Positions 44,225 through 64,000 of a stretch of DNA of 64,000 nt are shown here, piece by piece. Below the pieces are notes generated by a model, which was not told the origin of the DNA, made no database searches, and saw only the letters and a list, made by a program, of their open reading frames with translations. How positions within the stretch are numbered: position 1 is the stretch's first letter; each line of letters begins with the position of its first letter. A program made the translations under genes and the position numbers. This DNA comes from Armatimonadota bacterium (GTDB lineage Bacteria > Armatimonadota > Chthonomonadetes > Chthonomonadales > Chthonomonadaceae): NCBI GenBank assembly GCA_028871815.1, contig JAGWMJ010000001.1:584715-648714 (forward strand), in the 5' to 3' direction.

Positions 44225-45094
44225 ATGAGCCGAAATCACGTAGCCGGTGCGGACGGATTTACGCTGATCGAACTGCTTACGGTAATAGCAATTGTGGCCG
44301 TTTTGGCTGCCCTGCTGTTTCCGGTCTTTGCCCGTGCCCGCGAAGCGGCACGTTCCGCCACCTGCTTTACGCAGATGCACGACATCTACCGCGCTGTGGA
44401 GATGTACAAGGCCGATAACAACCGCTATCCTGCCAGCCTCATCGGCTTCGCGCAGTCCACCTCGGTGTACACGGCGCCCGATGGCAGCACCCACCTTGAG
44501 TTCTATACCGGTTCGGGTACACCCGCCGGACTGGATAAAGATACGTATCGACCGCTGATGGGCGGCCAGAAGTACCTGACCGGCGGAGACAACACGTTCC
44601 ACTGCCCGGATGACCCGATACAGGACCCAACGCGGCTGATGACTGCCGTCTACCCGACCAACACGCCCCTTGCGGGTCAGCCGGTATCGTTTACGGCGGA
44701 GATCGCGCACAACATCGGCAACACGCTGGTAGATCCGGCAGTTATTGGCGGACCGGCCTACTTCTTCTCGTTCGACAGCTATGACGCCGGCCCTCAGGTA
44801 AATGCCGACGGCAGCGCGCCTGCCACCCCGGTTACCGAGCTACACTACAGCCTCGATTGGACCGGGCAGACCGGCCCAGCCGATAATACATGCACCACGC
44901 ATCCAGACAGCCTGTGCATGAATCAGTTGAAGTATCCGGATCCGCCGAAGGACAAGACGGTTTTAACCTGGTGTACGTGGCACGTTTTTACGGCCCACGC
45001 CACCATGGTGAATGTACTACTGCTTAGTGGCACGGCCCGGCCCGTGCCGGTGAATACGTTTGAAGCCAAAGGCCCGCTCAACCTTGAGTACTAG
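44225..45094 (+). CDS. Prepilin-type protein with a DUF1559-like C-terminus (class III signal peptide).
   Basis: The leader is MSRNHVAGADG, followed by FTLIELLTVIAIVAVLAALLFPVFARAREAARSATCFTQM. The C-terminus reads HATMVNVLLLSG (H-X9-SG). The ATG has GGAAAGG 4 nt upstream. Confidence 0.8.
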   Translation: MSRNHVAGADGFTLIELLTVIAIVAVLAALLFPVFARAREAARSATCFTQMHDIYRAVEMYKADNNRYPASLIGFAQSTSVYTAPDGSTHLEFYTGSGTPAGLDKDTYRPLMGGQKYLTGGDNTFHCPDDPIQDPTRLMTAVYPTNTPLAGQPVSFTAEIAHNIGNTLVDPAVIGGPAYFFSFDSYDAGPQVNADGSAPATPVTELHYSLDWTGQTGPADNTCTTHPDSLCMNQLKYPDPPKDKTVLTWCTWHVFTAHATMVNVLLLSGTARPVPVNTFEAKGPLNLEY

Positions 45095-46120: not shown

Positions 46121-46237
46121 CCAAACCTGTTCATCCAAAGGAACACGGCGCTCGGGCACGTCGTCCAAAACCGGCGTGGTGCGCTCTGGCAGTAACGGGG
46201 CTACTGCGCCGAATCACGGAACCATAAAGGCTTGAGA

Positions 46238-48295: not shown

Positions 48296-50422
48296 ATGAC
48301 AGCACAACGCAACAACCACAACAAGAGTCAATCCGCCGCCGCTCGCGGGGCCACAGCGTTCACGCTCATTGAGCTGCTCGTCGTCCTGGCGCTCACGGCC
48401 ATCGTCTTTACCATAGTTTTCAAACCGCTGGTGGATGGATTTAACCTGGTCAGCCGCGCCGGTACGCAGATTGAAGCTCAGACCGATGCGCGAAACATCC
48501 TGAGGCAGATTTCCGGCTACACAGCGAATGCCGAGTATCTGTACGATAACTCCACCACGCGTATCAATCTCTGGTTTACCGATAGTACCGGCGCGCCCTA
48601 CTATATTAGCGAACCGTTCGCAATGATGGAGTACGTAAACCCGGCCCGGCAGGGCGATGAAAACCCATCCAACCAGATCATCGACCCGACCACCGGACAG
48701 CCGATCTATCCCGCCGGCGGACCGTTGAGCGGTTTCGCCCTGCCGCTCTCACCGGGGCGGTCGTTGGGACGCATCTTCATCGGTCTCAGCGATAACAGCG
48801 CCCAGCCCGACACCCATACGCTCAACCCGGGTGATCCGACCGACGTTCGCCAGGACGGTATGCCGCTCAAGCCATACGCCAATAGGTATTCCGACCCGAG
48901 CCTGGTGAACACCAGCCAGGATAACCGGTATACGCTGTACCACGCGGAAGTTCAAGCCTATATCCGCGACCCCGATAACGCCAACAACTATATTCCCAAC
49001 CTTTCACTGTTCCATACCGTGGATGCGTTGGGCAATCGCGACACAAAAACGGGGCAGTTGATCCTGCACGATCCGAACTTCTTCTACGATAACTCACTGG
49101 CCGGTGACTCAACCAGCAAGGGCGCCCTGAAGTGGGCCGTGCCCGGTTGGCGAGATTTGAACGGTGACGGCAAGGTTGAGATCTGGGAGAACTGGCGCGC
49201 CGTATCCACCAGCCTGATGGAGCGACGTAAGGTGGATATGGTGGCGCTCGACCGGGATGATAACAACCAGATTATCTATGGCGCGCTCAATCGGCCTACT
49301 GTCCGCCCGCTGGCGCAGTTTGCACCGTCATTTGTTGAGAACGATCCCGGCGTGCCCGCCAGCCTCGGCGCGGCCGGTAACGAGGCTCCGGATGCCGCCG
49401 CCGGCGCCTACACGGCGCAGTACGATCACTGGGCCAACAACCCGCTATCCCTGCCATACAAGGTCTTCGTCTATCGCGCTCCGAACAGCACCACCGATCC
49501 TACCACTCTCAATCCGGAGACCTACTTCATCGCCAACGGCAATGGGAAGATCGTGGCCGGCGTCGGACCGCCCGGCTCTACGCCGCCCGATCCCAACAGT
49601 CCTGCCAGTATCGACGTGGGTCCACGGCCCGATCCGGTAACAGGCGTTTGGAACAACCCGTATCCAAAGTTTGCCTTTACCGTCGATCCGGAACGAGGCG
49701 TGATCAACTTCGCATTTCCGGAGGGCGTGCTCATGCACGACGCCTCCAACAATGCCGTGCCGCAGCGCTACAATCCCGGAACAATCGATGCGGCGCTCGA
49801 CGGAACCTACGGCCGGCGCTACCTGGACCTGCATACATTTGCCCTGGCTCTCAACCCGCCGGCCGCCATCTCGCCAGTCGGTGAGTTCAACTTTGTGCAG
49901 GGTACGCTGCCCACGATCAGCATCGTGCCCGGCTCAGAAACGGTCTATGGGCCCGATCAGAGACCTGGCCCGCACTACGGATGGCGGACCGAATACTCAC
50001 GAGTCTCGGCCAACACCGGTACCGTGGGGCCAAACCAGTACAAGATCCTTTACGCCGACGCTGCGAACGCCGCCGCTGATCCACAGCCGAACGACCCGCG
50101 AGTGCGTATCGGTTACGTTGAGTTCGACAGTACGCCCGATGGCGCCGTAAGCAACATCAACGATAATCCCATCAACGGCGTCTACAAGCCACATGGCCTG
50201 CCCACGCTCAAAGCCTCCGGCGGCGTGAATGTGGCTGCCGACCCGGTAGAAGTTTCGTACAGCTTCCAGATGAATCGGCCAAACGACGTCGTGAAGATCG
50301 ACTACTACACCCGCGATCTGTTTAACATCACCCTGCAAACCCGCTACTACGATCAGGCCTCGGGCACGCCGCAATCTGTGGACCTGGCCGAACGGATACA
50401 TCTGCGGAACCTGCAGCACTAG
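48296..50422 (+). CDS. Giant PilW-like minor-pilin-type protein (708 aa).
   Basis: The N-terminal ARGATAFTLIELLVVLALTAIVFTIVFKPL has Ala at -1 and Glu at +5. Confidence 0.7.
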   Translation: MTAQRNNHNKSQSAAARGATAFTLIELLVVLALTAIVFTIVFKPLVDGFNLVSRAGTQIEAQTDARNILRQISGYTANAEYLYDNSTTRINLWFTDSTGAPYYISEPFAMMEYVNPARQGDENPSNQIIDPTTGQPIYPAGGPLSGFALPLSPGRSLGRIFIGLSDNSAQPDTHTLNPGDPTDVRQDGMPLKPYANRYSDPSLVNTSQDNRYTLYHAEVQAYIRDPDNANNYIPNLSLFHTVDALGNRDTKTGQLILHDPNFFYDNSLAGDSTSKGALKWAVPGWRDLNGDGKVEIWENWRAVSTSLMERRKVDMVALDRDDNNQIIYGALNRPTVRPLAQFAPSFVENDPGVPASLGAAGNEAPDAAAGAYTAQYDHWANNPLSLPYKVFVYRAPNSTTDPTTLNPETYFIANGNGKIVAGVGPPGSTPPDPNSPASIDVGPRPDPVTGVWNNPYPKFAFTVDPERGVINFAFPEGVLMHDASNNAVPQRYNPGTIDAALDGTYGRRYLDLHTFALALNPPAAISPVGEFNFVQGTLPTISIVPGSETVYGPDQRPGPHYGWRTEYSRVSANTGTVGPNQYKILYADAANAAADPQPNDPRVRIGYVEFDSTPDGAVSNINDNPINGVYKPHGLPTLKASGGVNVAADPVEVSYSFQMNRPNDVVKIDYYTRDLFNITLQTRYYDQASGTPQSVDLAERIHLRNLQH

Positions 50423-50500
50423 AGCAACATCTAAGAGACAGCCCGCTTGGGGCCAACATCCTGGCATGCATCGCCAGCACCAAACCGGAGTGACCGCCTG

Positions 50501-53500
50501 ATGTCCGTCCGCTTTCGGAAGCAGGAACTGAATTCAACCAGCCGACCTGGGGCGCATCGCGGCCAGACGCTGATCGTGGCGCTGGCCGTGCTGTTCGTGC
50601 TCCTGATCATCGGCAGCCTCTTTGTTACCGAGGTTGCGCGCAACCTTACAGCCGCCGGCAGAAGTAGCGATACCCAGGCGGCAGCGGCACTTGCAGAGGC
50701 AGGTATCCGGTACGGCGACCAGCAGTTGACGCAGAGTGAGCAGGGCGCCGACTGGCGGCCCACACCCACCGGCGCAACAAACCTCACGGACCCAGATTAC
50801 GAGTGGCTGGCCGAAGGGTTTACGCGTGTTCCCATGCGTGGCGGTCGCGCCCTTATCCGCGTTACGTACGATCCACGCCCGGATAATCCGCGCAGCCAGT
50901 ACATCAAGATTGAGTCGATCGGACGGCCCGGCGAACTCGGCGCCACCGAAGACCCCACTGTGTTCGCGCAGCAGGGGAACGTGCCCCGCCTGCGCAGTGA
51001 GCGCGTCGCCTACAAGCAGATTGGGCTTACCGATTACAGCCTGTTCATCACGGATAAAACGCGAAGTGGCGTCGCAGACTTTCTTGGCTGGCCGGCCGGT
51101 CCACACAACACCTCGGTGGTTATCGGCGACCCGACGACGGCTGAGTTTCCTTCCGGCATAAACAACAACCACCTCATCCTGAACGGCGCGGTCCGCTGCA
51201 ATGCCGACCTGAATCTGGGTGGCGACTTCTTCCTGTATGCGGGAGCCCGTGGTAACGTCGATTCCTCCGGAAATCCCGAGCCGCTGCTCTCGAACGAGGG
51301 GATGTACGTAGCCGGTAACATCAACCTTGTGCCCACGCGAGATGTGAATGGCGACGGGACACTCGGCGCCGGCGACCTGCAGGCGCACGTCGACCAGATT
51401 ATCAACTATCCCGGGCTGGTGAATAACCCCGCCACCGACCCATCGCAATCGGGCAACTTGATCCGCAGCAGCACCGATCCGCTCTACAGCACGCACGGTG
51501 GCTATGTAAGAGATGGCTCATCGGCTACCGACGTGAACGGGTTTACACGAGACACGCCGAGACTGGATCCGCCGAGCATCGACGCCGATGTGGCCGGAAC
51601 CACCACCATGCGCTACCGCGCGCTAACCCGCGACAGCGGTGAGTGGATCACCGACGCCAACGGCAACCCGCAGAATACCGGTCTGTATGGATGGGGCAGC
51701 CAGGGCATCTACGTGGATAACCCGGCCGACCTTCAGCCCGAAACCTTTACACCGGGTATCAATGGCGGATACTCGCTTCCCCGTGAATGGCTGAACCCAC
51801 AGGGAAACTACGCCGACGGCGCATGGCAGGGACCGCAGTACCGGCCGCCATCGGTCAACGTCTATCTGGAGGGCGATCAAATCGTCATGGTTCGGGATGA
51901 CGGCCAATCGTGGCTGAAACCGGACGGCACCCCGATAGCTCCCGGCGGCGCATCCACCATCACGATTCCACTCTCGGACGCTGCCCGCCGCAACCACACC
52001 TTCCCGGACGGCGTAACGGTTTACGTACCGCCCTTTCCGCACAACGGCGACGATCCCAGCAGCTACAGCGCCGCGAATCCCAGCCCTTATGGAGACCCAA
52101 ACTCCTACGGAGTCAATGTGGTGATCATGCTGGAGGGAAACGTGAGCGTGCGTGGCGTCTACGGTGCGATTACCGATCCCACGCAGGATCTGAACGCGCC
52201 GCAGCTATCGCGGGTCCATCTCACCATCGTCACCGGCGGCACCGCCTATATCACGGGCAACCTCGTGAAGGGCGACGGCTACATCGATCCCAATACCCAC
52301 GTAGTGCACAGCGAGCGAAACTCCACCTGCGCCATACTGGCTAAGGACTATGTTTGCGTGAACACCACGCTGTTCAATGCGTCCGAAAGCAATGCAGCTG
52401 CATGGTCCGATCTCACGCCGGGCAGTTCGATGATGACTACCGAAATCGGCGCCCAGAACCCGTACAGCTTTGACTTCAGTTTCGGTGTGGATCCCACCAC
52501 GTACGGCATGCCATCGTACGTGATGCTGCGGCACGCGGCCGTCGCGCCGGGACCCTCGTACCTGAATATGCTCATCAACCCGGCCCTGGGAACCACCACG
52601 GCCGACGGCGATAACACCTCGAACTACCTTTTCGAATTCAATAACGAGCCGTCGGGGTCCGTCGCCGATCCCTTCGACGTGCCGTATGCGGTGAGCCAGG
52701 GCTGGACGGGCAGCGCTTACCTCTCCAGCAGCGTCGGCGTGGCGCCGAACTTCGAGCAGATCGCCTTTCCGCTGGAAGGGCACATTGGCATACTGAACAG
52801 CGATCTGCCCAACGACCCCGTTTTTCTGCCGACAGCGCCGTACAAGAGCTGGTTCCCGACGCTGGCGCACGTTCCCGCCAACGCCTCGGCTCCGCCGGTG
52901 CCCGGATACGACAACACGGTGCAGCTGCAACTGGACACGCTGGTCGATCCGAGTACCGGGAGCTTCTCCGGCGCCTTTACCGACTATTTGATGAGCAATG
53001 CCGCGGTGGCGCCAAACGATATTCGCATCGAGGCGCTGCTCTACGCCGAGAACCGATCCTTCTTCGTGATTCCCGGTTATCCGTTCAACACCGATCAAAA
53101 CGATACACGAGAGGCGGCTGCGGTAAGCGGTGTGCGCCGGTCGTACGGTGGACCTTATACTGGCCTGAATGCGCTCATCCCATTCTATAACGAACCCGCC
53201 GACGTGCGCATCACGATATTCGGCGCCATCTGCGAGAACTATACGGCTTCGTCGTCGGATCAAAAGGCGTGGCTACAGAAGTGGGGCTATATTCCGGCCA
53301 CACTCGGCTCGTCCGGCATCAGCATTCCCCTGGATCACCTTAGGGTGCATGATCCGTCTAACGCACCGTACAATCCGGCGGAAGACAAGACTGCGGACTT
53401 CCGCACACCATTCGAAAGCCAAACCGGCGTGCCGGCCCAGTATGCCGACTTTCCGTTGACTCGCGGCTTGCGGTTGGTGTACGACCCTGCCTTCGCGATG

Positions 53501-53692
53501 CCCTACGAGGCGCCGACTGATCCGACGCTGCCCACCGATAACCGCGGTGCGCGGTCACTGAGGTTCATCGATACTAAAGTGATCAATCCAAACACGAATA
53601 CCGACTTTATCCAGACGCTGCCGCCTATTCCCGACCTGCCGGTGTGCCCCGGTCTGCTCTACTTTGGCGCCAGCGACCAACCGATAAGCTAA
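50501..53692 (+). CDS. Giant PilX/GspK-like protein (1064 aa).
   Basis: The N-terminal RGQTLIVALAVLFVLLIIGSLFVTEVA is a pseudopilin-like hydrophobic helix lacking Phe1 and Glu5, as in PilX/GspK. The start is taken at the ATG 50501. Confidence 0.65.
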   Translation: MSVRFRKQELNSTSRPGAHRGQTLIVALAVLFVLLIIGSLFVTEVARNLTAAGRSSDTQAAAALAEAGIRYGDQQLTQSEQGADWRPTPTGATNLTDPDYEWLAEGFTRVPMRGGRALIRVTYDPRPDNPRSQYIKIESIGRPGELGATEDPTVFAQQGNVPRLRSERVAYKQIGLTDYSLFITDKTRSGVADFLGWPAGPHNTSVVIGDPTTAEFPSGINNNHLILNGAVRCNADLNLGGDFFLYAGARGNVDSSGNPEPLLSNEGMYVAGNINLVPTRDVNGDGTLGAGDLQAHVDQIINYPGLVNNPATDPSQSGNLIRSSTDPLYSTHGGYVRDGSSATDVNGFTRDTPRLDPPSIDADVAGTTTMRYRALTRDSGEWITDANGNPQNTGLYGWGSQGIYVDNPADLQPETFTPGINGGYSLPREWLNPQGNYADGAWQGPQYRPPSVNVYLEGDQIVMVRDDGQSWLKPDGTPIAPGGASTITIPLSDAARRNHTFPDGVTVYVPPFPHNGDDPSSYSAANPSPYGDPNSYGVNVVIMLEGNVSVRGVYGAITDPTQDLNAPQLSRVHLTIVTGGTAYITGNLVKGDGYIDPNTHVVHSERNSTCAILAKDYVCVNTTLFNASESNAAAWSDLTPGSSMMTTEIGAQNPYSFDFSFGVDPTTYGMPSYVMLRHAAVAPGPSYLNMLINPALGTTTADGDNTSNYLFEFNNEPSGSVADPFDVPYAVSQGWTGSAYLSSSVGVAPNFEQIAFPLEGHIGILNSDLPNDPVFLPTAPYKSWFPTLAHVPANASAPPVPGYDNTVQLQLDTLVDPSTGSFSGAFTDYLMSNAAVAPNDIRIEALLYAENRSFFVIPGYPFNTDQNDTREAAAVSGVRRSYGGPYTGLNALIPFYNEPADVRITIFGAICENYTASSSDQKAWLQKWGYIPATLGSSGISIPLDHLRVHDPSNAPYNPAEDKTADFRTPFESQTGVPAQYADFPLTRGLRLVYDPAFAMPYEAPTDPTLPTDNRGARSLRFIDTKVINPNTNTDFIQTLPPIPDLPVCPGLLYFGASDQPIS

Positions 53693-53694
53693 GA

Positions 53695-56600
53695 ATGCGG
53701 ACAAGAGATATGTTGAGAGGAACAGCCAGCCGGTTTACCGGCGCCGCACTTGTTGCGGGGGCATTGCTTGCCCTTACGTGCGCACCGGCAAGTGCCGATG
53801 TATACGGTTACGCCTCCAGCCTGCGCCAGGTTCACGCCTGCGTCCTGGTCTCGAATGCCGCGGCCACCAACGTCAATGGCGTCACTGTGCCCGAAAACTG
53901 TACTCCCTTCGTCTTTTATGCGATGGACGTGCGCACCGACCTCAAACCGGGCGGCTGGAGCTTTTCGAATCCGCTGGCTCCCGCAACCATCACGAGCACG
54001 ATGTGGCAGCGGTGGTACAACCGCCAGGTTGGAAGCGCAACTCCCGACCCGGCGTTCCAGCCGGGTACGCCCCAGGAGATCAGCTTCCAGATTGGCGCGC
54101 CACTGACCAAAAACATGGCGCCCTACTGGGAGGTGAACCTCGACACGGTTTCGAGCTCCGATCTCAACCAGTTTGATGTGGTTCTGATGGCGTATCGCGA
54201 TGCGTTCAGCTTTACACCGGATGAGCGTGCCAAGCTGCAGCATTTTATGGATGGTGGCGGCACAATCTGGCTGGAAGATGAAGGCGGCGCCAACGTGGTG
54301 GCTAATGGTGGTCAGTTCGCCATTCCGGTGATCTTCAACACAAACCCGGCCGCCGGCGTCGCACCGACTCTCGCGTCGTTCAACCATCCGCTGGTCAACT
54401 TTCCTTACACCATTTCGGCAACGCAGATTCAGGGCCTGGGTCAGGGCGAAACCGGACCGCACCACATTGCCACGTCGCCCACGGGTGGGTTGGTAAGTCC
54501 CAGCATCGTGGAACCGGTGGTTCGGCAAGGCTCGCTCAACCTGCCACTGGTCTATGCCGGTGATTATGGCGCCGGGCATCTGCTCATCAGTTCGCTTGGC
54601 GTTGCCACCGGCATCGCGGGATACCTGGGCGGGCCCAACATCGCGAACGAGGGGCCGAACACGGCTACAATCACGGGCACGCAGCTTTTGGGCGTTCGTG
54701 CGGTCGATCTGGAATTCGCCATCAACGCTGTGGCATGGACCTCCTCGATTACCGAAGGCGCCGTAAACGCACGCCGTGCGGGTGGCGCCACAGAGACGAT
54801 GGACGCCGCGCTCGGCGAGAAATGGGCCACCATACCGCACGCCGGCCGAACCTCCGCCGATTCCGGCGCCGTCAGCTACAAGAACGTCGTATTCTGGGTA
54901 GGACCTGCCGCCAATGGAAGCAATGCCAACCCCAGCGTATTACACGCCTTTAATGCCAACCCGGGTCAGGACCTGGATGGAGACCTGAGCTCGGACGAAG
55001 GTCTGGTGGACTACTCCACGGGTACCCCGTGGGATGAGATCTGGAACTACGACCTCACCAAGGTTAACGGCAGCGGAACCACCACAACCTCGCGCGTTTC
55101 AACTCCTACCGTCATCTCGCTGGCTAACTCTGCCAACGGGCTGTCCCAGGATCTGGTAGCGGTAACGAATTCCGTTGGCGTAACCATGGCGTTCCAGGCA
55201 TTTCCTGGCGGCAGCGTCTTCTCCAGCGTTGGTCAGCTCGCCTGGACAACATCGGCACTGTACGGACCAGGTCCCGACATTTCTGCGGAACTCTCGTTCC
55301 CTTATCGGAATCAAAGCGCGGGTTCAGGTGATCCAAACCAACTCTATCCAGACATCCCGGCCCCGGCTCCCGTGCTTTCCGAAGGCGTTTTATTCGCGAT
55401 TGCGTATGTGCAGTCCGCCGACGTAAACCACTCGTGGAGGGTGGCAGCCATCGACCCAGCGACCGGTGCCAACATCTTTGGAACCGCAAGCGGGTATGCC
55501 CCATTCTCTACTCCCGGAGTGATAGGACTGCCCACACCTACGGGCCCGCTTTCGGCGTCTTACGTACGGGACGACCTTACCGGCGCGCAAGACAAAATGA
55601 TCATGGTGCCCACCGAGGACCTCTCCAACAATACGGTTACCGGCGCCATCGATGGGCTCTGGTTCGCAACGCGCGATGAGCCACTGGTGGCGTCGTCCAC
55701 GGGCTTAGCCGGCGACTACAGCCCGATTGGCAACCGTGCGCATGTGCCGTGGTACGCACCGACCACAGGCGCGAATACCTCCCTGCTGCCCGTCGTTTCG
55801 GTAGTGACAACCAATACACAAACAGGGTTGGTCACCAACGTCACGCAGTTGCAGTCCACGCAATACCAGATTCTCTATCTCGGCGCGCCGGGTTCGCGCA
55901 ACATGGTGGTGCGCCTCTCAACGCCACTCAATCCGCCCGTTGGGTTTACTCAGACGGTTAGCGCCGACTACACGGTGGATTGGCCGGATGCGCCGATTGG
56001 GGCCGGGGCCTCCGTACCAATCGCCTCGGAACTCAGCCTCTTCTCCGGAACGCTGCCCCAGTACGGCAACAACTACCGGCTGTTTTCACCGAACAATGCG
56101 CCAAATCGCGAACCGGTGCTTCTCTCGGGTGCGCCGGCCGTGAGCCGAAACGATCTGACGATCTTTGGCGCCGGCGATTATGACAACGCGGACCGGATCT
56201 ATGCCTATCGGCCTCAGTTTGCCACGGGCAGGTCCAGCGCAGGCTATGCCGTACCCTACGTGCCTGAAATCGCCTGGATGTTCTCGCCAGCCACCGCCTT
56301 CAGCGACGGCAACACGGCGGACTTCGTTCCTGCCCGGTTTGTGGTGGCGCCCAATACAGGCGTTGCTACCCCGAACAACGGCGCGGCTCCAACGGCGTTT
56401 TACGATTTCGAAATGGTCGGCAGCCCCGCGGTAGTCAACGGGACGGTGTACGTTGCCGGCTGGGGGCATCTTGTTGGCGACAGCGGGCAAGGGGGCGACG
56501 ACGTCTCCATCATTGCGGCGCTTCGCGAGCAGCCGCCACTCACTTTCACGATCCCCAACCTTCCCGCGGGCTCCACGGTGAGTGACATCACGGTTTCGCA

Positions 56601-58698
56601 GGTGGATGTGCTGCAGAGCAGCGCAACCAATCCGCGGTACATCCGCGTTTCACAGAACTTTACCAATCCCAGCGCGCCGCAGCGGATGACCTTTGACCCC
56701 ACCTCGGGTCAGGTGCACATGCTGAATCTCTATACGCCCGATGGATGTCTGAACACGGCGCTGCCACTGCAGGTAACCGTTGTTGGCAGCACCGGCACCA
56801 ACACCGTTTCCACGGTGCGGGCCAGCAACGGGTTTGGGCCATTGGATAACTGCCTTTGGTATGTGGTGATTCCGGTCAGCGGAATGGCGGATGCCGCCGG
56901 CGACCCGGTTCTTCCATTTGCGCCGGTGCCACCACCACCGGTAGGCCCGCCGACAGGCAGCGCCAATCTGTATCGGTACTACACCGCCAGTGGTCCCAGC
57001 GTGGTGGGTAACTCGCTCTTCGTTGGCATGCGAAACGGCTATATCGTGGCGCTGCCACTCACCGGCCTTCCCACCAACGGTTCGCAAGTTTCGCTGCTGA
57101 AGGATCCTACGCAACTACCCAGCGTGCAGAATTCCATCCTTACGGCACTGCCGGCCATTCAGAATCCAGCGACCGGTATCGCATTCGATACGCCCGTTAT
57201 CAATCCGCCGCTGGCCACCAACGGCACGCTGCTGGTAGGCACCCCGAACGGACTCTCCGCGCTGGATGATCAGGTGACGCTTATCGCCGACAGTGACCGA
57301 CTGCTGGAAGTGAACCACGCCGGGCAGGCCGTCTGGTCGCTTGGCAGCACACGATCGCTCGGTGTCGCCGGAGGCACTCTCGTGGATAGCGGGCAGATCA
57401 TCACGTCCAAGGTTCCGCTGGCCAACCCGAATGTGGCGCACCACACCTCGCTGGAGACTTTTGTCGTGGCGGAAACCGGCCACAACCGGGTGATTCAGGT
57501 TGATAAGGGCGGCATCGTGGATTACGAGATTGCCGCTCTGCGCAACGATCTCCACGTGCTGCCACCGGGCAGCCCGCTTTCGCTTAATGCGCCCACGGAT
57601 GTACAGGTACTTCCCGACCAGGGCGCCGCGATCAGCTTCACCAGTCCGCTCAATGGAGTCACATACAGCTATGCAGGCGCCTACATCGCACAGCACTATC
57701 TGATCGCCGATGGCGGGAACTACCGCATTGTGGAGGTGGAGGACGCCTACAACAGTTCCGGCGAGCCCGTTGTACTTACCGGAAGCGACGGCAGCTCGGT
57801 GACGATGCTCGACCAGGTCGTCTATTCCACGGAGACCACGGAACAAAACCAGCGGTTGCGCTATCGAACGGTTCAGTTCTTCAGCACCATTGATCGATCC
57901 GGGCTCAACCCCATAGCGGCAAACTATCTTTGCGCCACCGTGGATAACCAGCGGCTCGCCGCTACCGATCCGGGTGTGGCAGGCGTTGGTCTGGACGGAA
58001 GCAATGTGCGGGGACCGGGTGGCTCGTTGAGCCTGATACACCGGTATCCGGCGACGGGCGCACCGTACAAGGATGGCGCGGTGGCGGCGGTGATCAACAG
58101 CTTCCAGCTGCCAAACGGCGCCATTCAGGCGGTCGATCGGCCAACATGGTTCAAAGAGGTGAATGTGCCGGGGCAGAGTTTACCGGACTACCTGCTTGCC
58201 GATGCAAATGGCGTGTACGAGTTGCAGCCGGCTGGTAACTCCGCCAAAGTGGTCTGGATGCTCAGCACCCAGGACTACTTCAACCTGACCGGCCACCCGC
58301 TCCGCGCGACCTGCATCCAGCGCCTCGGCAATCTGGACTACGACTCGACGAACAACCTGTTCTATCCGCGGTATCTGATTACAAACGGCTACTCAGGCAA
58401 CGATCAGGTTGGCGCCACATTCGGGTTCGGCCCCGGCAGTCCCTACGATGGCCGCGTGACCGGTGAAGTGGTTGAGGTGAGGAGCCTGGAATACTACATG
58501 GGCGGATACGGGGTAGCCGACGCGCTCTATACTTCGGCCACCGGCGCACTTCAGATGAACCCAGCGTCGGCTATCACGTGGATTTGCCCGTCTGAGTCGA
58601 TCTCAAACGGCAAGATTATCCGCTCCATCGGCTCGCTCACAGGAGCCACCAGTACGTCAATGCTTTCTCAGCCTACCTACAGCGAACGGCGTCCGTAA
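53695..58698 (+). CDS. Giant secreted PilY1-like protein (1668 aa) with PQQ-like beta-propeller repeats.
   Basis: A Sec signal reads MLRGTASRFTGAALVAGALLALTCAPASA. Blade-like repeats include VVNGTVYVAGWGHLVGDSGQ, GNSLFVGMRNGYIVALP and LATNGTLLVGTPNGLSALDD. It sits at the PilY1 position after the pilVWX-like genes and starts 3 nt after the previous stop. Confidence 0.6.
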   Translation: MRTRDMLRGTASRFTGAALVAGALLALTCAPASADVYGYASSLRQVHACVLVSNAAATNVNGVTVPENCTPFVFYAMDVRTDLKPGGWSFSNPLAPATITSTMWQRWYNRQVGSATPDPAFQPGTPQEISFQIGAPLTKNMAPYWEVNLDTVSSSDLNQFDVVLMAYRDAFSFTPDERAKLQHFMDGGGTIWLEDEGGANVVANGGQFAIPVIFNTNPAAGVAPTLASFNHPLVNFPYTISATQIQGLGQGETGPHHIATSPTGGLVSPSIVEPVVRQGSLNLPLVYAGDYGAGHLLISSLGVATGIAGYLGGPNIANEGPNTATITGTQLLGVRAVDLEFAINAVAWTSSITEGAVNARRAGGATETMDAALGEKWATIPHAGRTSADSGAVSYKNVVFWVGPAANGSNANPSVLHAFNANPGQDLDGDLSSDEGLVDYSTGTPWDEIWNYDLTKVNGSGTTTTSRVSTPTVISLANSANGLSQDLVAVTNSVGVTMAFQAFPGGSVFSSVGQLAWTTSALYGPGPDISAELSFPYRNQSAGSGDPNQLYPDIPAPAPVLSEGVLFAIAYVQSADVNHSWRVAAIDPATGANIFGTASGYAPFSTPGVIGLPTPTGPLSASYVRDDLTGAQDKMIMVPTEDLSNNTVTGAIDGLWFATRDEPLVASSTGLAGDYSPIGNRAHVPWYAPTTGANTSLLPVVSVVTTNTQTGLVTNVTQLQSTQYQILYLGAPGSRNMVVRLSTPLNPPVGFTQTVSADYTVDWPDAPIGAGASVPIASELSLFSGTLPQYGNNYRLFSPNNAPNREPVLLSGAPAVSRNDLTIFGAGDYDNADRIYAYRPQFATGRSSAGYAVPYVPEIAWMFSPATAFSDGNTADFVPARFVVAPNTGVATPNNGAAPTAFYDFEMVGSPAVVNGTVYVAGWGHLVGDSGQGGDDVSIIAALREQPPLTFTIPNLPAGSTVSDITVSQVDVLQSSATNPRYIRVSQNFTNPSAPQRMTFDPTSGQVHMLNLYTPDGCLNTALPLQVTVVGSTGTNTVSTVRASNGFGPLDNCLWYVVIPVSGMADAAGDPVLPFAPVPPPPVGPPTGSANLYRYYTASGPSVVGNSLFVGMRNGYIVALPLTGLPTNGSQVSLLKDPTQLPSVQNSILTALPAIQNPATGIAFDTPVINPPLATNGTLLVGTPNGLSALDDQVTLIADSDRLLEVNHAGQAVWSLGSTRSLGVAGGTLVDSGQIITSKVPLANPNVAHHTSLETFVVAETGHNRVIQVDKGGIVDYEIAALRNDLHVLPPGSPLSLNAPTDVQVLPDQGAAISFTSPLNGVTYSYAGAYIAQHYLIADGGNYRIVEVEDAYNSSGEPVVLTGSDGSSVTMLDQVVYSTETTEQNQRLRYRTVQFFSTIDRSGLNPIAANYLCATVDNQRLAATDPGVAGVGLDGSNVRGPGGSLSLIHRYPATGAPYKDGAVAAVINSFQLPNGAIQAVDRPTWFKEVNVPGQSLPDYLLADANGVYELQPAGNSAKVVWMLSTQDYFNLTGHPLRATCIQRLGNLDYDSTNNLFYPRYLITNGYSGNDQVGATFGFGPGSPYDGRVTGEVVEVRSLEYYMGGYGVADALYTSATGALQMNPASAITWICPSESISNGKIIRSIGSLTGATSTSMLSQPTYSERRP

Positions 58699-58701
58699 AC
58701 T

Positions 58702-61700
58702 ATGAGCAAGGATCTATTGCGGCTAGCGTGGCGTGCAGCCCGCACTGTTCTCCCACTGCCGGTGGCAGTGCTTGGCCTATGGCTGGCTGCCGGCACGGCA
58801 TGCCGCGCCCAGGCACCCATCGTATTCGATAACCTCGATTGGACAGTAGATCGTGGCGCCACGACGATGGTGGGGCTGCTAGTAGCGCCTAACGCCAACC
58901 TGCTGCGGCAGGGACGCAACATCACTGCGGCGACGGCGCCTGTGGGCAACGGCCTCAATCCCGGCCCGTCGGTTCGCCGCTGGGTCTTCCCGCGTACTTC
59001 CGATATAGCCCTCACCGCCGCAAACGGCAATCCGGTCGGCAACGAGATCATCGACAACCCCAATCTCGCAGATCCCATTTTCACCGGCATCACGCAGCAG
59101 CCGCTGGGTGACAACTCGCAGGATACTACCGGCGCAGAAACCCGTGTTCAACCGTTTCCACCGCTAAATGCAGCCGGGTCACCGGTGGGTGAAGATCCGC
59201 AGCAGATGGCGCACGCCTTCTGGCTGCCGAATCTCGCCACATGGACGCCCACGGGCTTCAATCTGCCGTTTGGCGCCACGAACGACTATCGCGCGCCCGG
59301 AGGCGGCTTTTCGTTCAACTCCGATCCAAGTTTGAGTTGGGATTTTGACTATGGCTATGTGCCGGCCATCCATGACGATTTCAACGTCAACCGACCGGAT
59401 GGCGCCGACGGACCTGCGACGGCGGATGAGCTTGCGGCGCTGCCGAACGCGCCGTACTACGTCTACAACGCCGTCAACAGTACGCTCAATGCCTCCGCTC
59501 TCAATGGCGCCGGTACTCCAACCGCGGTATGGTCTGCCGGTCAGTACAATCTGGCCAGCGGCCGGTACGCGGTGGCGCTGTATTCGCCTGGCGACGGCAG
59601 CCTTGTTGGAACCACGCCGAGTCCTGAAGTCTCACGGGCTTTTGTCCGGGTTGCCTGGATCAACACTATAAATGCGAATGGCTCGCTAAACTGGGGTACC
59701 GGTACGCCGGGCGCCGGTGGCATCACCGATCCCGATAACAGCCGTATCTTTGAGGTAAACCTGAGCGCCGGTGGCTGGATTACGCTGCAGGGCGGCGGCC
59801 TGGGTCCGGCCGCGTTTGATCAGAACAATGCGGCAACCGCCAGCAACGCAAACCAGATTGTGGTTGTGCTCTATTCGCTGACGCCCGATCAACTCAACGA
59901 TCCAATCTACGGTGGCCCAACCAACGCCATTCCGCCCGTTGTTACCGCAGATGCGTGCCGCTTTTCACCGGTAGCCGCCAGCGGTACAACTCCACCGGCG
60001 CAGCTGACCAAGTACAACACGGCAACGCCTCCGGCAGCGCTCTGGACGATCAGTCCAGCCGGCCGCATTCTTGGTCCGGAAGTGGCGACCGATAAAATCA
60101 AGGTTGCCGCCGGCATCGTTCAGCCGCTGCACTTCGTGGCGCGCGAAGAGGATGTGCCGAATACCACCGATCTCTCCGCCGTTAATCCAACGCTGCCGAT
60201 TAGCGCAACAAATATTGCCACACCCGATCCAACCGCGGAGGCTACGGCGCCAGTCTTCTACTGCCTGGATAGTCGCAACAGCGTGGGCCCGGCCAACGAC
60301 CTCACCGATCCCAATTACTTCTCAGTATCGAGGGTGGTTTGGCGATACGTCGGCCTGCCGGATGGCGCCAGCGGTACGGCCAGCGCATCTCCCACGCTGG
60401 CAAACGTGCGGTGTCGCGATGGTGTGACGCGGCCCATGGTCTATTTTGTTACCACCAACTCGGGCGGGGCATTGGGCCACATCTACGCCATCGATCCACT
60501 GCCGGCCGATATAGCTGCCGGTAACCTGGCCCTGACGCCAACCGTGTATTGGGCTTACCCCAGCGCAATACCATTGACGGCTGCCGAAACGGCCGCTTCC
60601 GACATCACCCAGCTCCACGACCCCAACTATACGGGAAGTACGCCGTTTGTCGGCTATGCGGCCACCTTTGGCGGTGACGTGGCGATTCCGTATTTCGACG
60701 GCGACATCATCACCGATCGGGCCACGGGAACGCAGCAGGTGCGCTCCGATACCGCCATTACATTTGGCGGTGTGCAGGCGGCGCCGGCCCTCATGAGTTC
60801 GCCCGATCCTAGCATCAAGGGGAATGTACTCGTTGTGCCCGATATGGATGGGCGCGTCTGGGCGTTCGACGCCGGAGGGCGTGGAGATTGGGGCACCGCG
60901 GGCGTGTCGTACCCCGGCACAACCCAGCGCTTGTGGACCTGGCCGCACTTTGGGGTGGATGCCTTCCGTCAGGCAATCAAGCCGGCCAACTGGGCCAGTG
61001 TACCGAACAAATTCGCCGACGAAGCCAGCCTTGGACCGTTCCTCTCGTCACCGGCCGTGGATCGCACCTACCCGCTGCCCATCGGCACAACACTTGTGCC
61101 GTTTATCGTCGGCTCGTCGGATGGCCACCTCTATTCGGTGGTGCCCGCCCTGGATGCACTCACGGCGGTTGGTAATGGCACGGCTTCCTGGAACAACCGG
61201 ATTCTGTGGCGATATCCAAGCGCCAACAACACGCTCGGCAGCCCTGTGAGCACACCGGCAATCTTCAAACCAACGAATGCCACGAGTGCGTACATCTACT
61301 TTACGGCCGGTGGCCGTGCCTATTGCGTGCCGGAAGCGCCCGACATCCGCATCAAGCCGCCCACAGTGAACTCGCTCTCGTGGGTCTTTCCATATACGCC
61401 CAATCCGCCCGCTCCGAACCCGAAGGACGACACGACAGCTTCACTGGACCCGGGATTCAATCTCAGCGCGCCATTGCTGATGGAAGCTGGTGTGAACGGA
61501 AACCAGTACGATGCCTGCTACCTGCTTCAAGGTAACGGCACCGTGATCGGGCTGGATGCAGCGCCGGTGGCCACGGGCGTAGCCGCGGGCCATGCGCTGG
61601 TAGTGGCGTCCGGGCAGAGCCTCACGGGCAGTTTCAGCGAAAGCTCGCCGATCGGCACGTGGCTCACCAGTTCGCCCGGCCTCGGCGCCAACCCGAACGT

Positions 61701-64000
61701 GCCCACCATGAACACGCCGACGATGCTCTTCGGAGACGATGACGGCAACATCTGGGGGCTTTCAACCGTTCCCCTGGCAGGCAGCATCGGCCCGGTTGGC
61801 AACGGCGCCAAGACCGCGCCGCTTCTGCCGGTTGATTACTACCACTCCGATTCCAGTGCATCCCGCACCGGCGAAGCCGTGCAGGTTGGTGGAGACAACC
61901 AGCCGGAGAGCGCCTCGTACCCCGTGCCGAATGGCATGCTGGCGGAAGGAGATCAAGGCGGACAGCTTCGCGGCTACGGGGTCGGCACCGATCTCACCGG
62001 CGGCGCTGCCGGCTTTGGCAACACCGTGGGCAAGAGCGAGCCCGCCGAAAACAGCATCGGCGGCAACGGTCCCGTGAGTATCGATCTCCGAATCCTGGAC
62101 TTTTACGATCCTGCGGTCTGGCAGCACTTTATGGGCCTTACTGCGCCATACGAAACGCCGGGAAGGACGCCGGCGGGCGCCTCGTTCGCCAACACGCAGC
62201 TTCCGATCACAGGCAACATCGAGGCCGGGAGCACGGCGATCGCGGTGGACTGGGGCGACTACCTGTATATAGCCGCGTGGGGCGTGTATCATGCCCAGCC
62301 AAGCAGCCTGACCCCGGGCCAGCAAGTGGCGGCGCCGGTCGTTATCTGCCACTTCACCATCACGCAACCTGGACGTTCGATTGCGCCGCAGATCACCGTT
62401 CCAGCAATGACGCTCCACACCGGCCTCAACTGGCCCGATGATCCCGGTATCACCCTGGCCGAGCACAACAACCTCGCCATCTTCGGCCAGAATGCCAGCG
62501 GCAGCGTTGGCCAGCTGGTTGGAGAGGCGAACAACGTCTTTCCGTGGGTCGCCATCTACAAGGTACCGATCCGGCCCGCGGGGCTCGCCACCTTCCTGCC
62601 CGGCCTGGCAAACTACCGCGTCACTGCCCAAGCGTTCATCCAGCAATCCACACAGACGAACGGCATATACCGCGCCCAGTCGAACATCCTGCAAGACGGT
62701 CAGCCTGATCTTGTGGGCCTGTCAAAATCGGCCTACCCACAGAATCAGAATCTCTCAATCACAGCGAATTCGCCGCGCAAGGTCTTCATCACCAACCCGA
62801 TTGGTGTGACGGTGCGCAGCTACAGCCCGCTGCAGGCGAACGGCGATCTGACGCCGATGATGGACGGGCAAAACGGGCTTACCGACCCGGACACCGGCGC
62901 TATCGGCTGGGGAGCGGCTGCCGGAGTGCTCGCGTCGCCCGGGATCTTCGAAGTGTTGGGCAACGGAAACGAAATCATCAACCCGCTCAGCCCAACCGCG
63001 GCAGGCAGTAGCGCCGGCGGCGCCACACTTAAATCGCTCTTCGCGCCCATCGGCATGGTGCAGGATGGCTCCAGCGGTCAGTACAGCGGCATCGATCCCA
63101 CCACCGGCAACGCAGTGCCAGCCTTCTTTGTGCTGGATCGCAGCAACATTCGGGCGATGACGGGCAGACCGCTGCTGATTCGCATCCAGCCCAGCACCGA
63201 TCCCAACGCCACGCTCACCGGCGGTCCGCTGCATTGGCACGGTGGTCCCAGCTCGGTAATGAATCCGCTGCCCTGGGATCAACTGCCTACCGATTCGCAG
63301 GACACGTCGGACTACCCAAGCCTGCCATTTGACAGTTTGAGCATCACGACCACCGCCGGCGAGGACGCTACCAAATCGTTGGTGCCGCTGCTGCCGCCGC
63401 TCTATCCAAACGGCCAGTCCGATCCCAAGTCGCGGCAGCCGCAGCCCACGGCCCTGAATCTATCCGTTCAGGTGCCGAAGTTCCAGCCGGCCAATGTGAA
63501 CCGTGGCGCGATATCCTTTACCGATGGCGGGGCGAGCTACAACTTCGGCAGTTCGTACCTGGATATCAGCGGAACGACTCGTGGCGCAAACAACAGCGAT
63601 CCGCTTCTAACAGGACCACTGGTCTCCGGCGCGGCCTCGCTTGCTGGAGGCGGCCAGCCGTGGGGACTGGGGCGGACCGGCTCGTACCCCGCTGGCGGAT
63701 ACATTGGCGACTTCGATATCGATGCGGTGCCGGTTGGTTCGGCCAGCGGCCGCTTCACAGTGCCCTACCGCACCGTTGAGATGGGCCTCACCGTGCCGCC
63801 GGACGAGAAGCTCTCGGTTCAGGAAGAGACGCTCGATCTCGGCAAGCTGCCGATGGCCGAAGGCTACAGCGACACCGATTACACCGGCACGAAGTTCTAC
63901 CGTGTTCCGTTTGCGCCTGCCGGTACCAGAGACTATCTCAACCCGCTGCCTGTGGATCCGTGGGACCCCGGCTCGGGTGATCCGTCCCAGACCTTCTTCC
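58702..64000 (+). CDS. Second giant secreted PilY1-like beta-propeller protein, at least 1766 aa; C-terminus beyond the window.
   Basis: The plus-strand frame is open from the ATG 58702 to the window end with no stop, so it is missing from the ORF track. The signal peptide is MSKDLLRLAWRAARTVLPLPVAVLGLWLAAGTACRAQA. Beta-propeller-like repeats include GNVLVVPDMDGRVWAFDAG, TLVPFIVGSSDGHLYSVVPALDA and TMLFGDDDGNIWGLS. Confidence 0.6.
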   Translation, partial: MSKDLLRLAWRAARTVLPLPVAVLGLWLAAGTACRAQAPIVFDNLDWTVDRGATTMVGLLVAPNANLLRQGRNITAATAPVGNGLNPGPSVRRWVFPRTSDIALTAANGNPVGNEIIDNPNLADPIFTGITQQPLGDNSQDTTGAETRVQPFPPLNAAGSPVGEDPQQMAHAFWLPNLATWTPTGFNLPFGATNDYRAPGGGFSFNSDPSLSWDFDYGYVPAIHDDFNVNRPDGADGPATADELAALPNAPYYVYNAVNSTLNASALNGAGTPTAVWSAGQYNLASGRYAVALYSPGDGSLVGTTPSPEVSRAFVRVAWINTINANGSLNWGTGTPGAGGITDPDNSRIFEVNLSAGGWITLQGGGLGPAAFDQNNAATASNANQIVVVLYSLTPDQLNDPIYGGPTNAIPPVVTADACRFSPVAASGTTPPAQLTKYNTATPPAALWTISPAGRILGPEVATDKIKVAAGIVQPLHFVAREEDVPNTTDLSAVNPTLPISATNIATPDPTAEATAPVFYCLDSRNSVGPANDLTDPNYFSVSRVVWRYVGLPDGASGTASASPTLANVRCRDGVTRPMVYFVTTNSGGALGHIYAIDPLPADIAAGNLALTPTVYWAYPSAIPLTAAETAASDITQLHDPNYTGSTPFVGYAATFGGDVAIPYFDGDIITDRATGTQQVRSDTAITFGGVQAAPALMSSPDPSIKGNVLVVPDMDGRVWAFDAGGRGDWGTAGVSYPGTTQRLWTWPHFGVDAFRQAIKPANWASVPNKFADEASLGPFLSSPAVDRTYPLPIGTTLVPFIVGSSDGHLYSVVPALDALTAVGNGTASWNNRILWRYPSANNTLGSPVSTPAIFKPTNATSAYIYFTAGGRAYCVPEAPDIRIKPPTVNSLSWVFPYTPNPPAPNPKDDTTASLDPGFNLSAPLLMEAGVNGNQYDACYLLQGNGTVIGLDAAPVATGVAAGHALVVASGQSLTGSFSESSPIGTWLTSSPGLGANPNVPTMNTPTMLFGDDDGNIWGLSTVPLAGSIGPVGNGAKTAPLLPVDYYHSDSSASRTGEAVQVGGDNQPESASYPVPNGMLAEGDQGGQLRGYGVGTDLTGGAAGFGNTVGKSEPAENSIGGNGPVSIDLRILDFYDPAVWQHFMGLTAPYETPGRTPAGASFANTQLPITGNIEAGSTAIAVDWGDYLYIAAWGVYHAQPSSLTPGQQVAAPVVICHFTITQPGRSIAPQITVPAMTLHTGLNWPDDPGITLAEHNNLAIFGQNASGSVGQLVGEANNVFPWVAIYKVPIRPAGLATFLPGLANYRVTAQAFIQQSTQTNGIYRAQSNILQDGQPDLVGLSKSAYPQNQNLSITANSPRKVFITNPIGVTVRSYSPLQANGDLTPMMDGQNGLTDPDTGAIGWGAAAGVLASPGIFEVLGNGNEIINPLSPTAAGSSAGGATLKSLFAPIGMVQDGSSGQYSGIDPTTGNAVPAFFVLDRSNIRAMTGRPLLIRIQPSTDPNATLTGGPLHWHGGPSSVMNPLPWDQLPTDSQDTSDYPSLPFDSLSITTTAGEDATKSLVPLLPPLYPNGQSDPKSRQPQPTALNLSVQVPKFQPANVNRGAISFTDGGASYNFGSSYLDISGTTRGANNSDPLLTGPLVSGAASLAGGGQPWGLGRTGSYPAGGYIGDFDIDAVPVGSASGRFTVPYRTVEMGLTVPPDEKLSVQEETLDLGKLPMAEGYSDTDYTGTKFYRVPFAPAGTRDYLNPLPVDPWDPGSGDPSQTFF

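Follow-up and report, generated by a model that had tools for sequence, protein, structure and literature searches.

Two unrelated giant beta-propeller proteins encoded at the end of a predicted type IVa pilus operon of Armatimonadota, candidates for a pilus priming or tip complex

What is known of the priming and tip complexes of type IV pili comes almost wholly from Proteobacteria and Myxococcus. The central protein there is PilY1/PilC (PF05567), which acts at the tip of type IVa pili as an adhesin and also in their priming. A locus from a bacterium of the little-studied phylum Armatimonadota raises the question of what two very large, adjacent and apparently secreted proteins contribute to a pilus, and whether they are relatives of PilY1. 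A sequence-only reading of the window (the whole stretch of 64,000 nucleotides that was analysed) had described them as a tandem pair of PilY1-like propeller proteins and had not noticed the pilus genes in front of them. The two genes are referred to here as gene 1 and gene 2, and their features and those of the preceding genes are collected in Table 1.

Both genes are real. Gene 1 lies in an open reading frame of 1684 codons that spans 53644-58698, and the ATG at 53695, from which a protein of 1667 aa is read, agrees with the N-termini of 58 homologs. The family has 84 homologs, 61 of which align over 96% or more of the query. An exact database look-up of the protein from 53695 returned no record, and the public copy is incomplete and lies at the end of a contig. 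Gene 2 was missing from the list of open reading frames solely because its frame runs off the window; frame 1 was checked for in-frame stops from 58702 to 64000 and has none over 1766 codons. Extension of the contig, which the sequence-only reading had advised, supplied the full gene. Over 9651 nt, public contig L001 has the same sequence as the window, and it carries gene 2 at 4353-12842, where it is annotated as P0085, a "hypothetical protein" of 2829 aa, so that the length of about 1700 aa proposed for each protein does not hold for gene 2. Its 21 homologs range from 2069 to 3217 aa.

Table 1. Features of the pilus operon and of its two terminal genes, in window coordinates
Feature	Coordinates	Strand	Basis
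pilB-type extension ATPase, first gene of the operon	38582..40399	+	Pfam T2SSE 3.5e-129, MshEN
pilT-type retraction ATPase (predicted), 416 aa	40488..41738	+	Pfam T2SSE 1.5e-51, without N-terminal MshEN
pilC platform protein	41790..43037	+	Pfam T2SSF 4.9e-71, two repeats
pilD prepilin peptidase	43082..44110	+	Pfam A24_N_bact 1.8e-32, Peptidase_A24 1e-9
Pilin 1, major-pilin-like, ADG/FTLIELL	44111..45094	+	N_methyl, SBP_bac_10, weak DUF1559; GspG/PilA N-terminal matches
Pilin 2, RHG/FTLIELL	45110..46120	+	N_methyl 5.9e-8
Giant minor pilin, 679 aa, PilV-like N-terminus, KPA/FTLLEVL	46232..48271	+	TIGR02523 PilV N-terminal match 1.5e-5
Giant minor pilin, 708 aa, ATA/FTLIELL	48296..50422	+	N_methyl; Verru_Chthon cassette C N-terminal match
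Giant PilX/GspK-like minor pilin, 1081 aa, without Glu5, HRG/QTLIVAL	50447..53692	+	N-terminus read directly
Gene 1, secreted multi-domain protein, 1667 aa	53695..58698	+	Open reading frame; homologs
Gene 1, predicted Sec type I signal peptide, aa 1-34, ...APASA/DVYG	53695..53796	+	By inspection
Gene 1, N-terminal GIFT/ThuA-like (class I glutamine-amidotransferase-like) alpha/beta domain, aa ~44-350	53824..54744	+	
Gene 1, PQQ/BamB-type beta-propeller with large insertions, aa ~373-1192	54811..57270	+	
Gene 1, EF-hand-like loop DLDGDLSSD, aa 426-434, candidate calcium site	54970..54996	+	Motif match
Gene 1, C-terminal NHL-type propeller and conserved C-terminal tail, aa ~1193-1667	57271..58695	+	Family profile
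Gene 2, first 1766 of 2829 codons	58702..64000	+	Open frame; continues ~3.2 kb past the window
Gene 2, predicted Sec type I signal peptide, aa 1-38, ...CRAQA/PIVF	58702..58815	+	By inspection
Gene 2, beta-rich domain, aa ~218-424	59353..59973	+	AF2 strands, pLDDT ~50 to 92
Gene 2, PQQ-type beta-propeller, ~7-8 blades with insertions, aa ~476-1100	60127..62001	+	Profile, Foldseek
Gene 2, DDDGN, blade hairpin turn, aa 1012-1016	61735..61749	+	Flanked by modelled strands 1004-1011 and 1017-1021

Gene 1 and gene 2 close an operon of 11 genes on the same strand, which comprises pilB-pilT-pilC-pilD, two pilins, three giant minor pilins and the two genes themselves. Intergenic gaps are 0-111 nt, with 2 nt between the PilX-like gene and gene 1 and 3 nt between gene 1 and gene 2. 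The gene upstream of pilB is aroE, which is unrelated. The operon appears to encode a type IVa pilus, judged from PilB, PilT, PilC and PilD and from the pilin N-termini, one of which lacks Glu5; the assignment of the second ATPase as PilT is based on its size and architecture. Pilin 1 probably starts downstream of its listed ATG. Absence of Glu5 is a hallmark of PilX/GspK (PMC7541494), and in the 1081-aa PilX-like protein, which has no match in Pfam, NCBIfam or the PDB, G39 and Q40 are invariant among 20 orthologs. The 64-kb window holds no secretin gene and no pilMNOP genes. A terminator scan found no terminator after gene 2, and promoter and terminator scans inside the operon returned matches at chance level. 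At its 3' end the operon is followed here by a tRNA-Met gene and a mobile/defence island.

The order of these genes is conserved in Armatimonadota. The first six genes of the cassette, including the giant minor pilins and gene 1, are colinear in 24 loci of the phylum, down to 23-30% identity, and a gene 2 homolog comes next at the 16 loci where tblastn finds one. Downstream of gene 2, pilM is present at seven of the nine loci checked. The cassette occurs in Chthonomonadales, Capsulimonadaceae, Fimbriimonadaceae and Armatimonadia, and the full-length genome matches all belong to Armatimonadota. Such synteny argues for a functional link of both proteins to the pilus, though not for a location at its tip. 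Literature on pilus proteins of this phylum was found only in the form of a generic gene inventory for Fimbriimonas.

The Sec signal peptides proposed for both proteins were borne out by inspection of the N-termini, which fit type I signal peptides. Each has a basic n-region and a hydrophobic core followed by ASA/D in gene 1 and AQA/P in gene 2, and neither has the G/FxxxE motif. The predicted cleavage positions coincide with the family consensus, A-x-A/D for gene 1 and A-x-A/Q for gene 2. A lipoprotein reading was rejected because the cysteines close to the cleavage sites are not retained across either family.

The N-terminus of gene 1 has a GIFT (GldG/IFT52)/DUF4159/ThuA-like fold, and a sub-threshold match to DUF4159 was the sole match of either protein against Pfam and NCBIfam. 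The AF2 model of residues 1-1200 has a pLDDT of 83 and a pTM of 0.88. A six-bladed NHL repeat propeller (PF01436) is predicted at the C-terminus. The family profile matches the Pizza6 designed NHL propellers (E 5e-11, 5-7 stretches) and also the NHL domains of Brat/TRIM71, and PF01436 is a precomputed match on the homolog P0034. An outer-membrane beta-signal was considered for this end and set aside, since the family consensus ends in SDRPF and this protein in SERRP.

The AF2 model of gene 2 (residues 1-1200) is moderate, with a pLDDT of 65, and a single-sequence PDB search with the propeller gave a marginal match to a Cake protein, so that the family profile was needed; this profile matches the Cake8/9/10 designed propellers (E 8e-14, 7 stretches). 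Foldseek returned 410 matches at E<=0.001, and the best 50 of the 410 are beta-propeller proteins. The distant ortholog L004 exceeds the Pfam PQQ_2 cut-off and has a Pfam Golvesin_C domain ahead of the propeller, at a position that may be equivalent to the beta-rich domain of gene 2. The N-terminal half of the protein is variable and modular, being occupied in P0090 by a PD40 propeller, and in distant lineages conservation is detectable in the C-terminal half only. The C-terminal region is an orphan of which ~1300 aa are conserved. It belongs to a small and wholly unannotated family, with 140 matches among 1.84 billion cluster representatives, and in the 69 matched proteins of at least 2000 aa the match falls in the C-terminal part. 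Three gene 2 orthologs searched against Pfam gave nothing useful and no PF05567. An hhalign self-scan confines internal repeats to residues 590-1022; PD40-like repeats, considered for the C-terminal 1700 aa, are unsupported since the scan finds none there.

Blade-like repeats had been described in both proteins by the motif G-x-(V/L)-Y/F-V-G-x-x-(D/N)-G-x-(L/V), which in its literal form has no exact match in gene 1 or gene 2. A looser blade hairpin motif, defined after inspection of the sequence, occurs five times in gene 2 at a spacing of 60-90 aa and once in gene 1. Shuffled versions of gene 2 contain it 0.36 times on average, and none of 2000 shuffles reached five. That the blade repeats are real follows from the matches of the family profiles to the Cake and Pizza designed propellers, and the blades repeat in the PQQ-like/BamB-like manner. 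The two proteins do not form a tandem pair in the sense of duplicates, a possibility that was rejected because profile-profile comparison found no similarity between the families. At the level of these profiles gene 1 and gene 2 are not paralogs, though both contain beta-propellers.

A relationship to PilY1 was sought at the levels of sequence and fold. An hmmscan of gene 1 and gene 2 against Pfam returned no match to PF05567 at E<=1, and the family profiles gave no sequence match to 3HX6 in the PDB at E<=10. Structure prediction and fold comparison, which had been proposed as checks, did yield beta-propellers; the neighbours listed are PQQ dehydrogenases, BamB, YxaL and the BamB-like Rv3035, and PilY1 (3HX6), which has a modified seven-bladed propeller, is not among the best 50-60. 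As judged from these profiles and from the fold neighbours listed, gene 1 and gene 2 are probably not relatives of PilY1. Their position in the operon supports a resemblance to PilY1; membership of the PilY1 family is not supported.

The EF-hand-like calcium loop of PilY1 has the consensus Dx[DN]xDGxxD (PMC8833165). The segment DDDGN of gene 2, which had been put forward speculatively as a PilY1-like calcium site, is a blade hairpin turn and does not fit this consensus. The turn belongs to a set of five equivalent [DNG]G turns, with DMDGR, SSDGH, TAGGR and QGNGT as counterparts in neighbouring blades, and D1012 and G1015 alone are invariant. Gene 2 has no motif of the Dx[DN]xDGxxD type. The motif that fits is instead in gene 1, where DLDGDLSSD is the sole match to D.[DN].[DN]...[DE] across both proteins. 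The gene 1 family consensus at the loop is DLDGDGNPD, so that Leu here replaces Gly at position 6. Among 59 family sequences the loop agrees with the strict PilY1 consensus in 28 and with a loose one in 46, and D434 and G436 are invariant. DxDxDG loops have emerged time and again in folds that are not related.

Gene 1 and gene 2 probably represent a pilus-associated pair of a new type, which would serve in adhesion or priming. The reading that we favour, with confidence a little above even, is that they encode unrelated, Sec-exported, non-pilin propeller proteins of the pilus priming or tip complex and close an Armatimonadota-specific type IVa operon. The three giant minor pilins, with the Glu5-less 1081-aa subunit as the cap, would assemble into an inner-membrane priming complex. 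The products of gene 1 and gene 2 would reach the periplasm by the Sec route and then dock onto this complex, for which the conserved C-terminal ~1300 aa of gene 2 may provide the interface. Extension driven by PilB would bring both giants out at the pilus tip, and PilT would retract it. At the tip, adhesion could then fall to the propellers, to the GIFT/ThuA-like domain and to gene 2's variable N-terminal half as modules, and the EF-hand-like loop in the gene 1 propeller would probably bind calcium, which would stabilise or regulate the protein as in PilY1. The two proteins sum to ~4500 residues, which is far above any pilus-tip protein known to us. Passage of ~4500 residues through a secretin is not obvious, and this speaks against a tip role.

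Alternatively, the two proteins could be secreted cargo, pushed out by a pilus-like machine in the manner of a type II secretion piston. They would then be exoproteins, either free or bound to the surface, such as matrix proteins or proteins that bind polysaccharides. Their predicted Sec signal peptides and the lack of a pilin N-terminus are consistent with cargo, as are the GspG-like N-termini of the pilins and the occurrence of GIFT/ThuA-like and Golvesin_C folds in carbohydrate-active proteins. An analogy between PilY1 itself and T2SS substrates has been drawn (PMC7541494), and the tip pseudopilins of the T2SS recognise cargo (PMC10191384). This explanation is nonetheless unlikely, since the PilT of the operon and the PilM that follows the cassette elsewhere are features of T4aP and not of T2SS, no GspC/L/M genes were seen, and strict phylum-wide colinearity with minor pilins is more typical of structural partners.

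It is also conceivable, and again improbable, that gene 1 and gene 2 never leave the cell and act as periplasmic or envelope scaffolds, for example as BamB-like platforms that align a trans-envelope complex or the secretin. BamB and the BamB-like Rv3035, which are among the closest folds, are periplasmic scaffolds; the two genes sit between the minor pilins and pilM in many loci, and their huge size would be less of a difficulty if no secretin had to be passed. Neither protein, however, has a lipobox or a membrane anchor besides the signal peptide, and the variable, modular N-terminal half of gene 2 joined to a conserved C-terminal half is the pattern of a surface adhesin under diversifying pressure. 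Least probable is that the proteins are true, highly diverged PilY1/PilC homologs with propellers derived from the PilY1 C-terminal domain, for although operon position, signal peptide type, propeller fold and, within a loop of the gene 1 propeller, the EF-hand-like consensus are shared, the searches for PF05567 at E<=1 and for 3HX6 at E<=10 were negative, the fold neighbours listed are 8-bladed PQQ/BamB propellers, the loop is of a kind that recurs in unrelated folds, and the propeller of PilY1 is C-terminal whereas the motif-bearing propeller of gene 1 is central with the NHL propeller after it and that of gene 2 lies in the variable N-terminal half.

A priming or tip role of the two proteins, which remains the preferred reading, invites comparison with PilY1. 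PilY1 is a non-pilin that has a signal peptide of type I, a variable N-terminus and a conserved C-terminus, encoded after pilX and, in Proteobacteria, after the minor pilins (PMC7541494). Within a T4aP cluster, gene 1 and gene 2 likewise directly follow minor pilins, one of them a PilX-like subunit without Glu5, as pilY1 is encoded with the fimU-pilV-pilW-pilX minor pilins, and by inspection they have type I (Sec) signal peptides without a prepilin leader. Both are large, modular and contain beta-propellers; in gene 1 a candidate loop of the Dx[DN]xDGxxD type is conserved between propeller strands, and gene 2 is variable in its N-terminal and conserved in its C-terminal part. They differ from PilY1 in being two unrelated proteins of 1667 and 2829 aa, as opposed to one of roughly 1000-1200 aa, in having 8-bladed PQQ/BamB-type and NHL-type propellers, in the GIFT/ThuA-like N-terminal domain of gene 1 where PilY1 has a vWA domain, and in the restriction of the family to Armatimonadota. 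We suggest tentatively, at somewhat less than even confidence, that the role of PilY1 has been taken over throughout the phylum by a two-protein module of ~4500 residues (propellers of the PQQ and NHL types and a C-terminal orphan domain) carried on three giant minor pilins and equipped with a convergent EF-hand-like calcium loop, which would be an undescribed type of tip complex.

Other known systems share single features with the cassette. The PQQ-like/BamB-like eight-bladed propellers (PQQ_2 PF13360; YxaL, BamB and quinoprotein dehydrogenases) are the best fold and profile matches of both PQQ-type propellers. Unlike BamB and YxaL, these propellers are embedded, with large insertions, in giant proteins of several domains, and the two proteins themselves fall below the Pfam cut-off for PQQ_2; PQQ binding or catalysis is not claimed for them. 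The Verru_Chthon cassette (TIGR02596/02598/02599/02600) and the Nostoc Hps locus likewise combine several pseudopilins with one very large non-pilin. The minor pilins described here have weak N-terminal matches to Verru_Chthon cassette B, C and D and to HpsB/HpsC, which reflect the generic prepilin N-terminus only, and gene 1 and gene 2 have no NCBIfam match at E<=0.1, including cassette protein A and HpsA.

Thermus ComZ and the bulky PilX of cyanobacteria, which generally lack PilY1, are lineage-specific tip solutions in which enlarged tip components take the tip-plug role in place of PilY1 (PMC6561018; bioRxiv 10.64898/2026.02.12.705559), and the oversized, Glu5-less PilX-like subunit of 1081 aa resembles them. 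A search of its profile against the PDB returned nothing and gave no sequence link to ComZ. ComZ and the bulky PilX are pilins or pilin-associated proteins with beta-solenoids, whereas gene 1 and gene 2 are predicted to be Sec-exported non-pilin propeller proteins. The cassette is a concrete candidate for what Armatimonadota fimbriae bind, and it raises the questions of how proteins of ~180 and ~300 kDa could ride on a pilus and whether calcium control at the tip arose twice. Thermus and cyanobacteria manage without PilY1, and the Armatimonadota cassette would be a third such solution, and the largest by far.

Gene 1 and gene 2, the two very long genes that follow the minor-pilin genes, are the last of 11 same-strand genes in an operon that is preceded by aroE and has gaps of 0-111 nt, with only 2 nt between the preceding gene and gene 1 and 3 nt between gene 1 and gene 2. 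Their products are best read as non-pilin proteins that partner the minor-pilin priming/tip complex in an Armatimonadota type IVa pilus, a reading which joins an observed operon structure and deep synteny to a presumed analogy with PilY1. The 1081-aa protein encoded immediately upstream has a prepilin-like N-terminus (HRG/QTLIVAL) in which G39 and Q40 are invariant among 20 orthologs and which lacks Glu5. A missing Glu5 is characteristic of PilX/GspK, the capping subunit of the minor-pilin complex and the one in contact with PilY1 (PMC7541494). Since gene 1 and gene 2 come directly after this PilX/GspK-like protein, they occupy the pilY1 locus position.

Features of the operon, its flank and the two long genes (L001, contig JAGWOF010000008.1 of GCA_028871005.1; L051, a further locus; other nucleotide positions are those of the window)
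Feature	Location	Strand	Remark
PilB, PilT, PilC, PilD	within operon	+	operon members
Two pilins, ~330 aa, G/FTLIELL	44111-46120	+	operon members
Three giant minor pilins, 679, 708 and 1081 aa	46232-53692	+	operon members
Gene 1 ORF	53644-58698	+	ATG at 53695, 1667 aa
EF-hand-like DLDGDLSSD	54970-54996; gene 1 residues 426-434	+	pattern match
Conserved gene 1 C-terminus	58651-58698		family consensus GTSTxLLEQPTFSDRPF
Gene 2 open frame	58702-64000	+	frame 1, 1766 codons
DDDGN	gene 2 residues 1012-1016		between modelled strands 1004-1011 and 1017-1021
Post-operon region	L001 13027-14349; L051 14812-22628 (past window end)		tRNA-Met, TraI-type relaxase/helicase fragment, island

The mature N-termini of the adjacent pilins are nearly identical (FTLIELLTVIAI). 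The first of them matches DUF1559 weakly, and its real start is probably downstream of the listed ATG, which implies a 48-residue leader. The minor pilins are far above typical minor-pilin size, and these sizes hold phylum-wide (about 600-780, 630-785 and 870-1113 aa); beyond the prepilin N-terminal motif, their bodies matched nothing in Pfam, in NCBIfam or among PDB sequences. Downstream of the operon in this genome, the tRNA-Met and relaxase/helicase fragment are followed by an SNF2/EcoRII/Vsr/Dcm island (SNF2 helicase, EcoRII-N, HATPase_c_3, EcoRII, Vsr and C5 DNA methylase) which resembles a mobile/defence insertion at the tRNA; in most other lineages pilM is found in this place.

The sequence-only reading had proposed two very long genes, and this was borne out; both lie on the plus strand. 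The gene 1 start agrees in N-terminal length and consensus with 58 homologs, and an Armatimonadetes MAG encodes a partial protein that matches it at 100% identity. Gene 2 has no stop inside the window and, as proposed, is missing from the ORF listing solely because its frame runs off the end. L001 matches window positions 54350-64000 with 0 mismatches over 9651 nt and reaches 4.7 kb past the window end, where it completes gene 2 at 2829 aa; the suggested ~1700 aa apiece is thus incorrect for gene 2. A second MAG also carries an identical gene 2 protein, annotated on a contig of 717 kb. L001 itself breaks off inside gene 1 (its position 1 is window 54350), so that copy is annotated as partial; the window sequence runs straight across the break.

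Both proteins had been called PilY1-like; membership of the PilY1 family found no support, as neither matched PF05567 at E ≤ 1 and neither family profile matched the PilY1 structure 3HX6 by sequence at E ≤ 10. Among the fold neighbours listed, the nearest relatives are clearly PQQ/BamB-type propellers, and true PilY1 homology is unlikely. The AF2 model of gene 1 residues 1-1200 is good (pLDDT 83, pTM 0.88), and the family profile indicates a C-terminal NHL propeller (designed propeller Pizza6, E 5e-11). For gene 2 residues 1-1200 the model is moderate (pLDDT 65, pTM 0.70), with a beta-rich domain at ~218-424 and the anticipated propeller at ~476-1100. The propeller is backed by profile matches to the Cake designed propellers (E 8e-14, 7 stretches) and by internal repeats; Foldseek returned 410 matches at E ≤ 0.001, the 50 listed all being beta-propeller proteins. 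The blade motif as originally written has 0 exact matches in either protein, and a looser hairpin motif, defined post hoc, occurs five times in gene 2 with blade-like spacing (shuffles average 0.36).

Both families align over their whole length. Of the 84 homologs of gene 1, 61 span at least 96% of the query with identities of 28-45%, and gene 2 has 21 homologs; the possibility that the two are paralogs was rejected. Colinearity of the first six cassette genes holds in 24 loci, at identities down to 23-30%, and in the 16 loci with tblastn detection of a gene 2 homolog, this homolog comes after gene 1. Full-length genome hits are all from Armatimonadota (Chthonomonadales, Capsulimonadaceae, Fimbriimonadaceae and Armatimonadia). 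No description of either protein was found in the literature searched, and the Fimbriimonas genome paper lists just PilB, C, D, Q, M and T with many pseudopilins. At its C-terminus the gene 1 family is strongly conserved over the final ~25 residues, a possible docking or sorting element.

The main rivals to a place in the tip complex are that the two proteins are cargo secreted by the pilus machine or periplasmic scaffolds of it. PilM is encoded next after gene 2 in 7 of the 9 loci examined there, which puts the gene pair inside the pilus cluster, and the presence of PilT and PilM in that cluster argues against both rivals, as does the modularity of the gene 2 N-terminal half. In ortholog P0090 this half carries a six-repeat, TolB-like PD40 propeller at ~540-840, and PD40 is among the precomputed Pfam hits of ortholog P0092 (the two are 3206-3217 aa long), which shows domain shuffling in this half of the family. 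The ortholog at locus L004 has Golvesin_C and a PQQ_2 propeller there. What can be detected of gene 2 in distant lineages is limited to the C-terminal ~1300 aa, encoded outside the window. Searched exhaustively, the last 1200 aa matched only 140 cluster representatives out of 1.84 billion, and the 69 matched proteins of at least 2000 aa have the matching stretch in their C-terminal part. The strongest point against a tip location is the combined ~4500 residues.

The DDDGN segment of gene 2, put forward speculatively as a PilY1-like calcium site, is instead a blade hairpin turn, the same as DMDGR, SSDGH, TAGGR and QGNGT of the other blades; its invariant residues are D1012 and G1015 alone, and it does not fit the PilY1 calcium consensus Dx[DN]xDGxxD (PMC8833165). 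The sole EF-hand-like pattern match across both proteins is DLDGDLSSD of gene 1, in a confidently modelled loop joining two propeller strands. One such match in a protein could be chance; composition gives an estimate of about 0.1 expected. At the aligned position the strict PilY1 consensus is found in 28 and the loose one in 46 of 59 family members, with D434 and G436 invariant and DLDGDGNPD as family consensus. Because the motif is kept in this way, the loop is under constraint, and it is a candidate for calcium binding.

As partners of the tip complex, the two proteins would be analogs that match PilY1 in function and are made of other parts, in which the variable N-terminal modules would serve as adhesion surfaces and the conserved C-terminal module of gene 2 as the docking part. 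A conserved EF-hand-like DxDxDGxxD loop, of the type with which PilY1 binds calcium, lies in gene 1 and not in gene 2, where such a site had been sought. Lineage-specific solutions have replaced PilY1 elsewhere, namely ComZ in Thermus and a bulky PilX in cyanobacteria.
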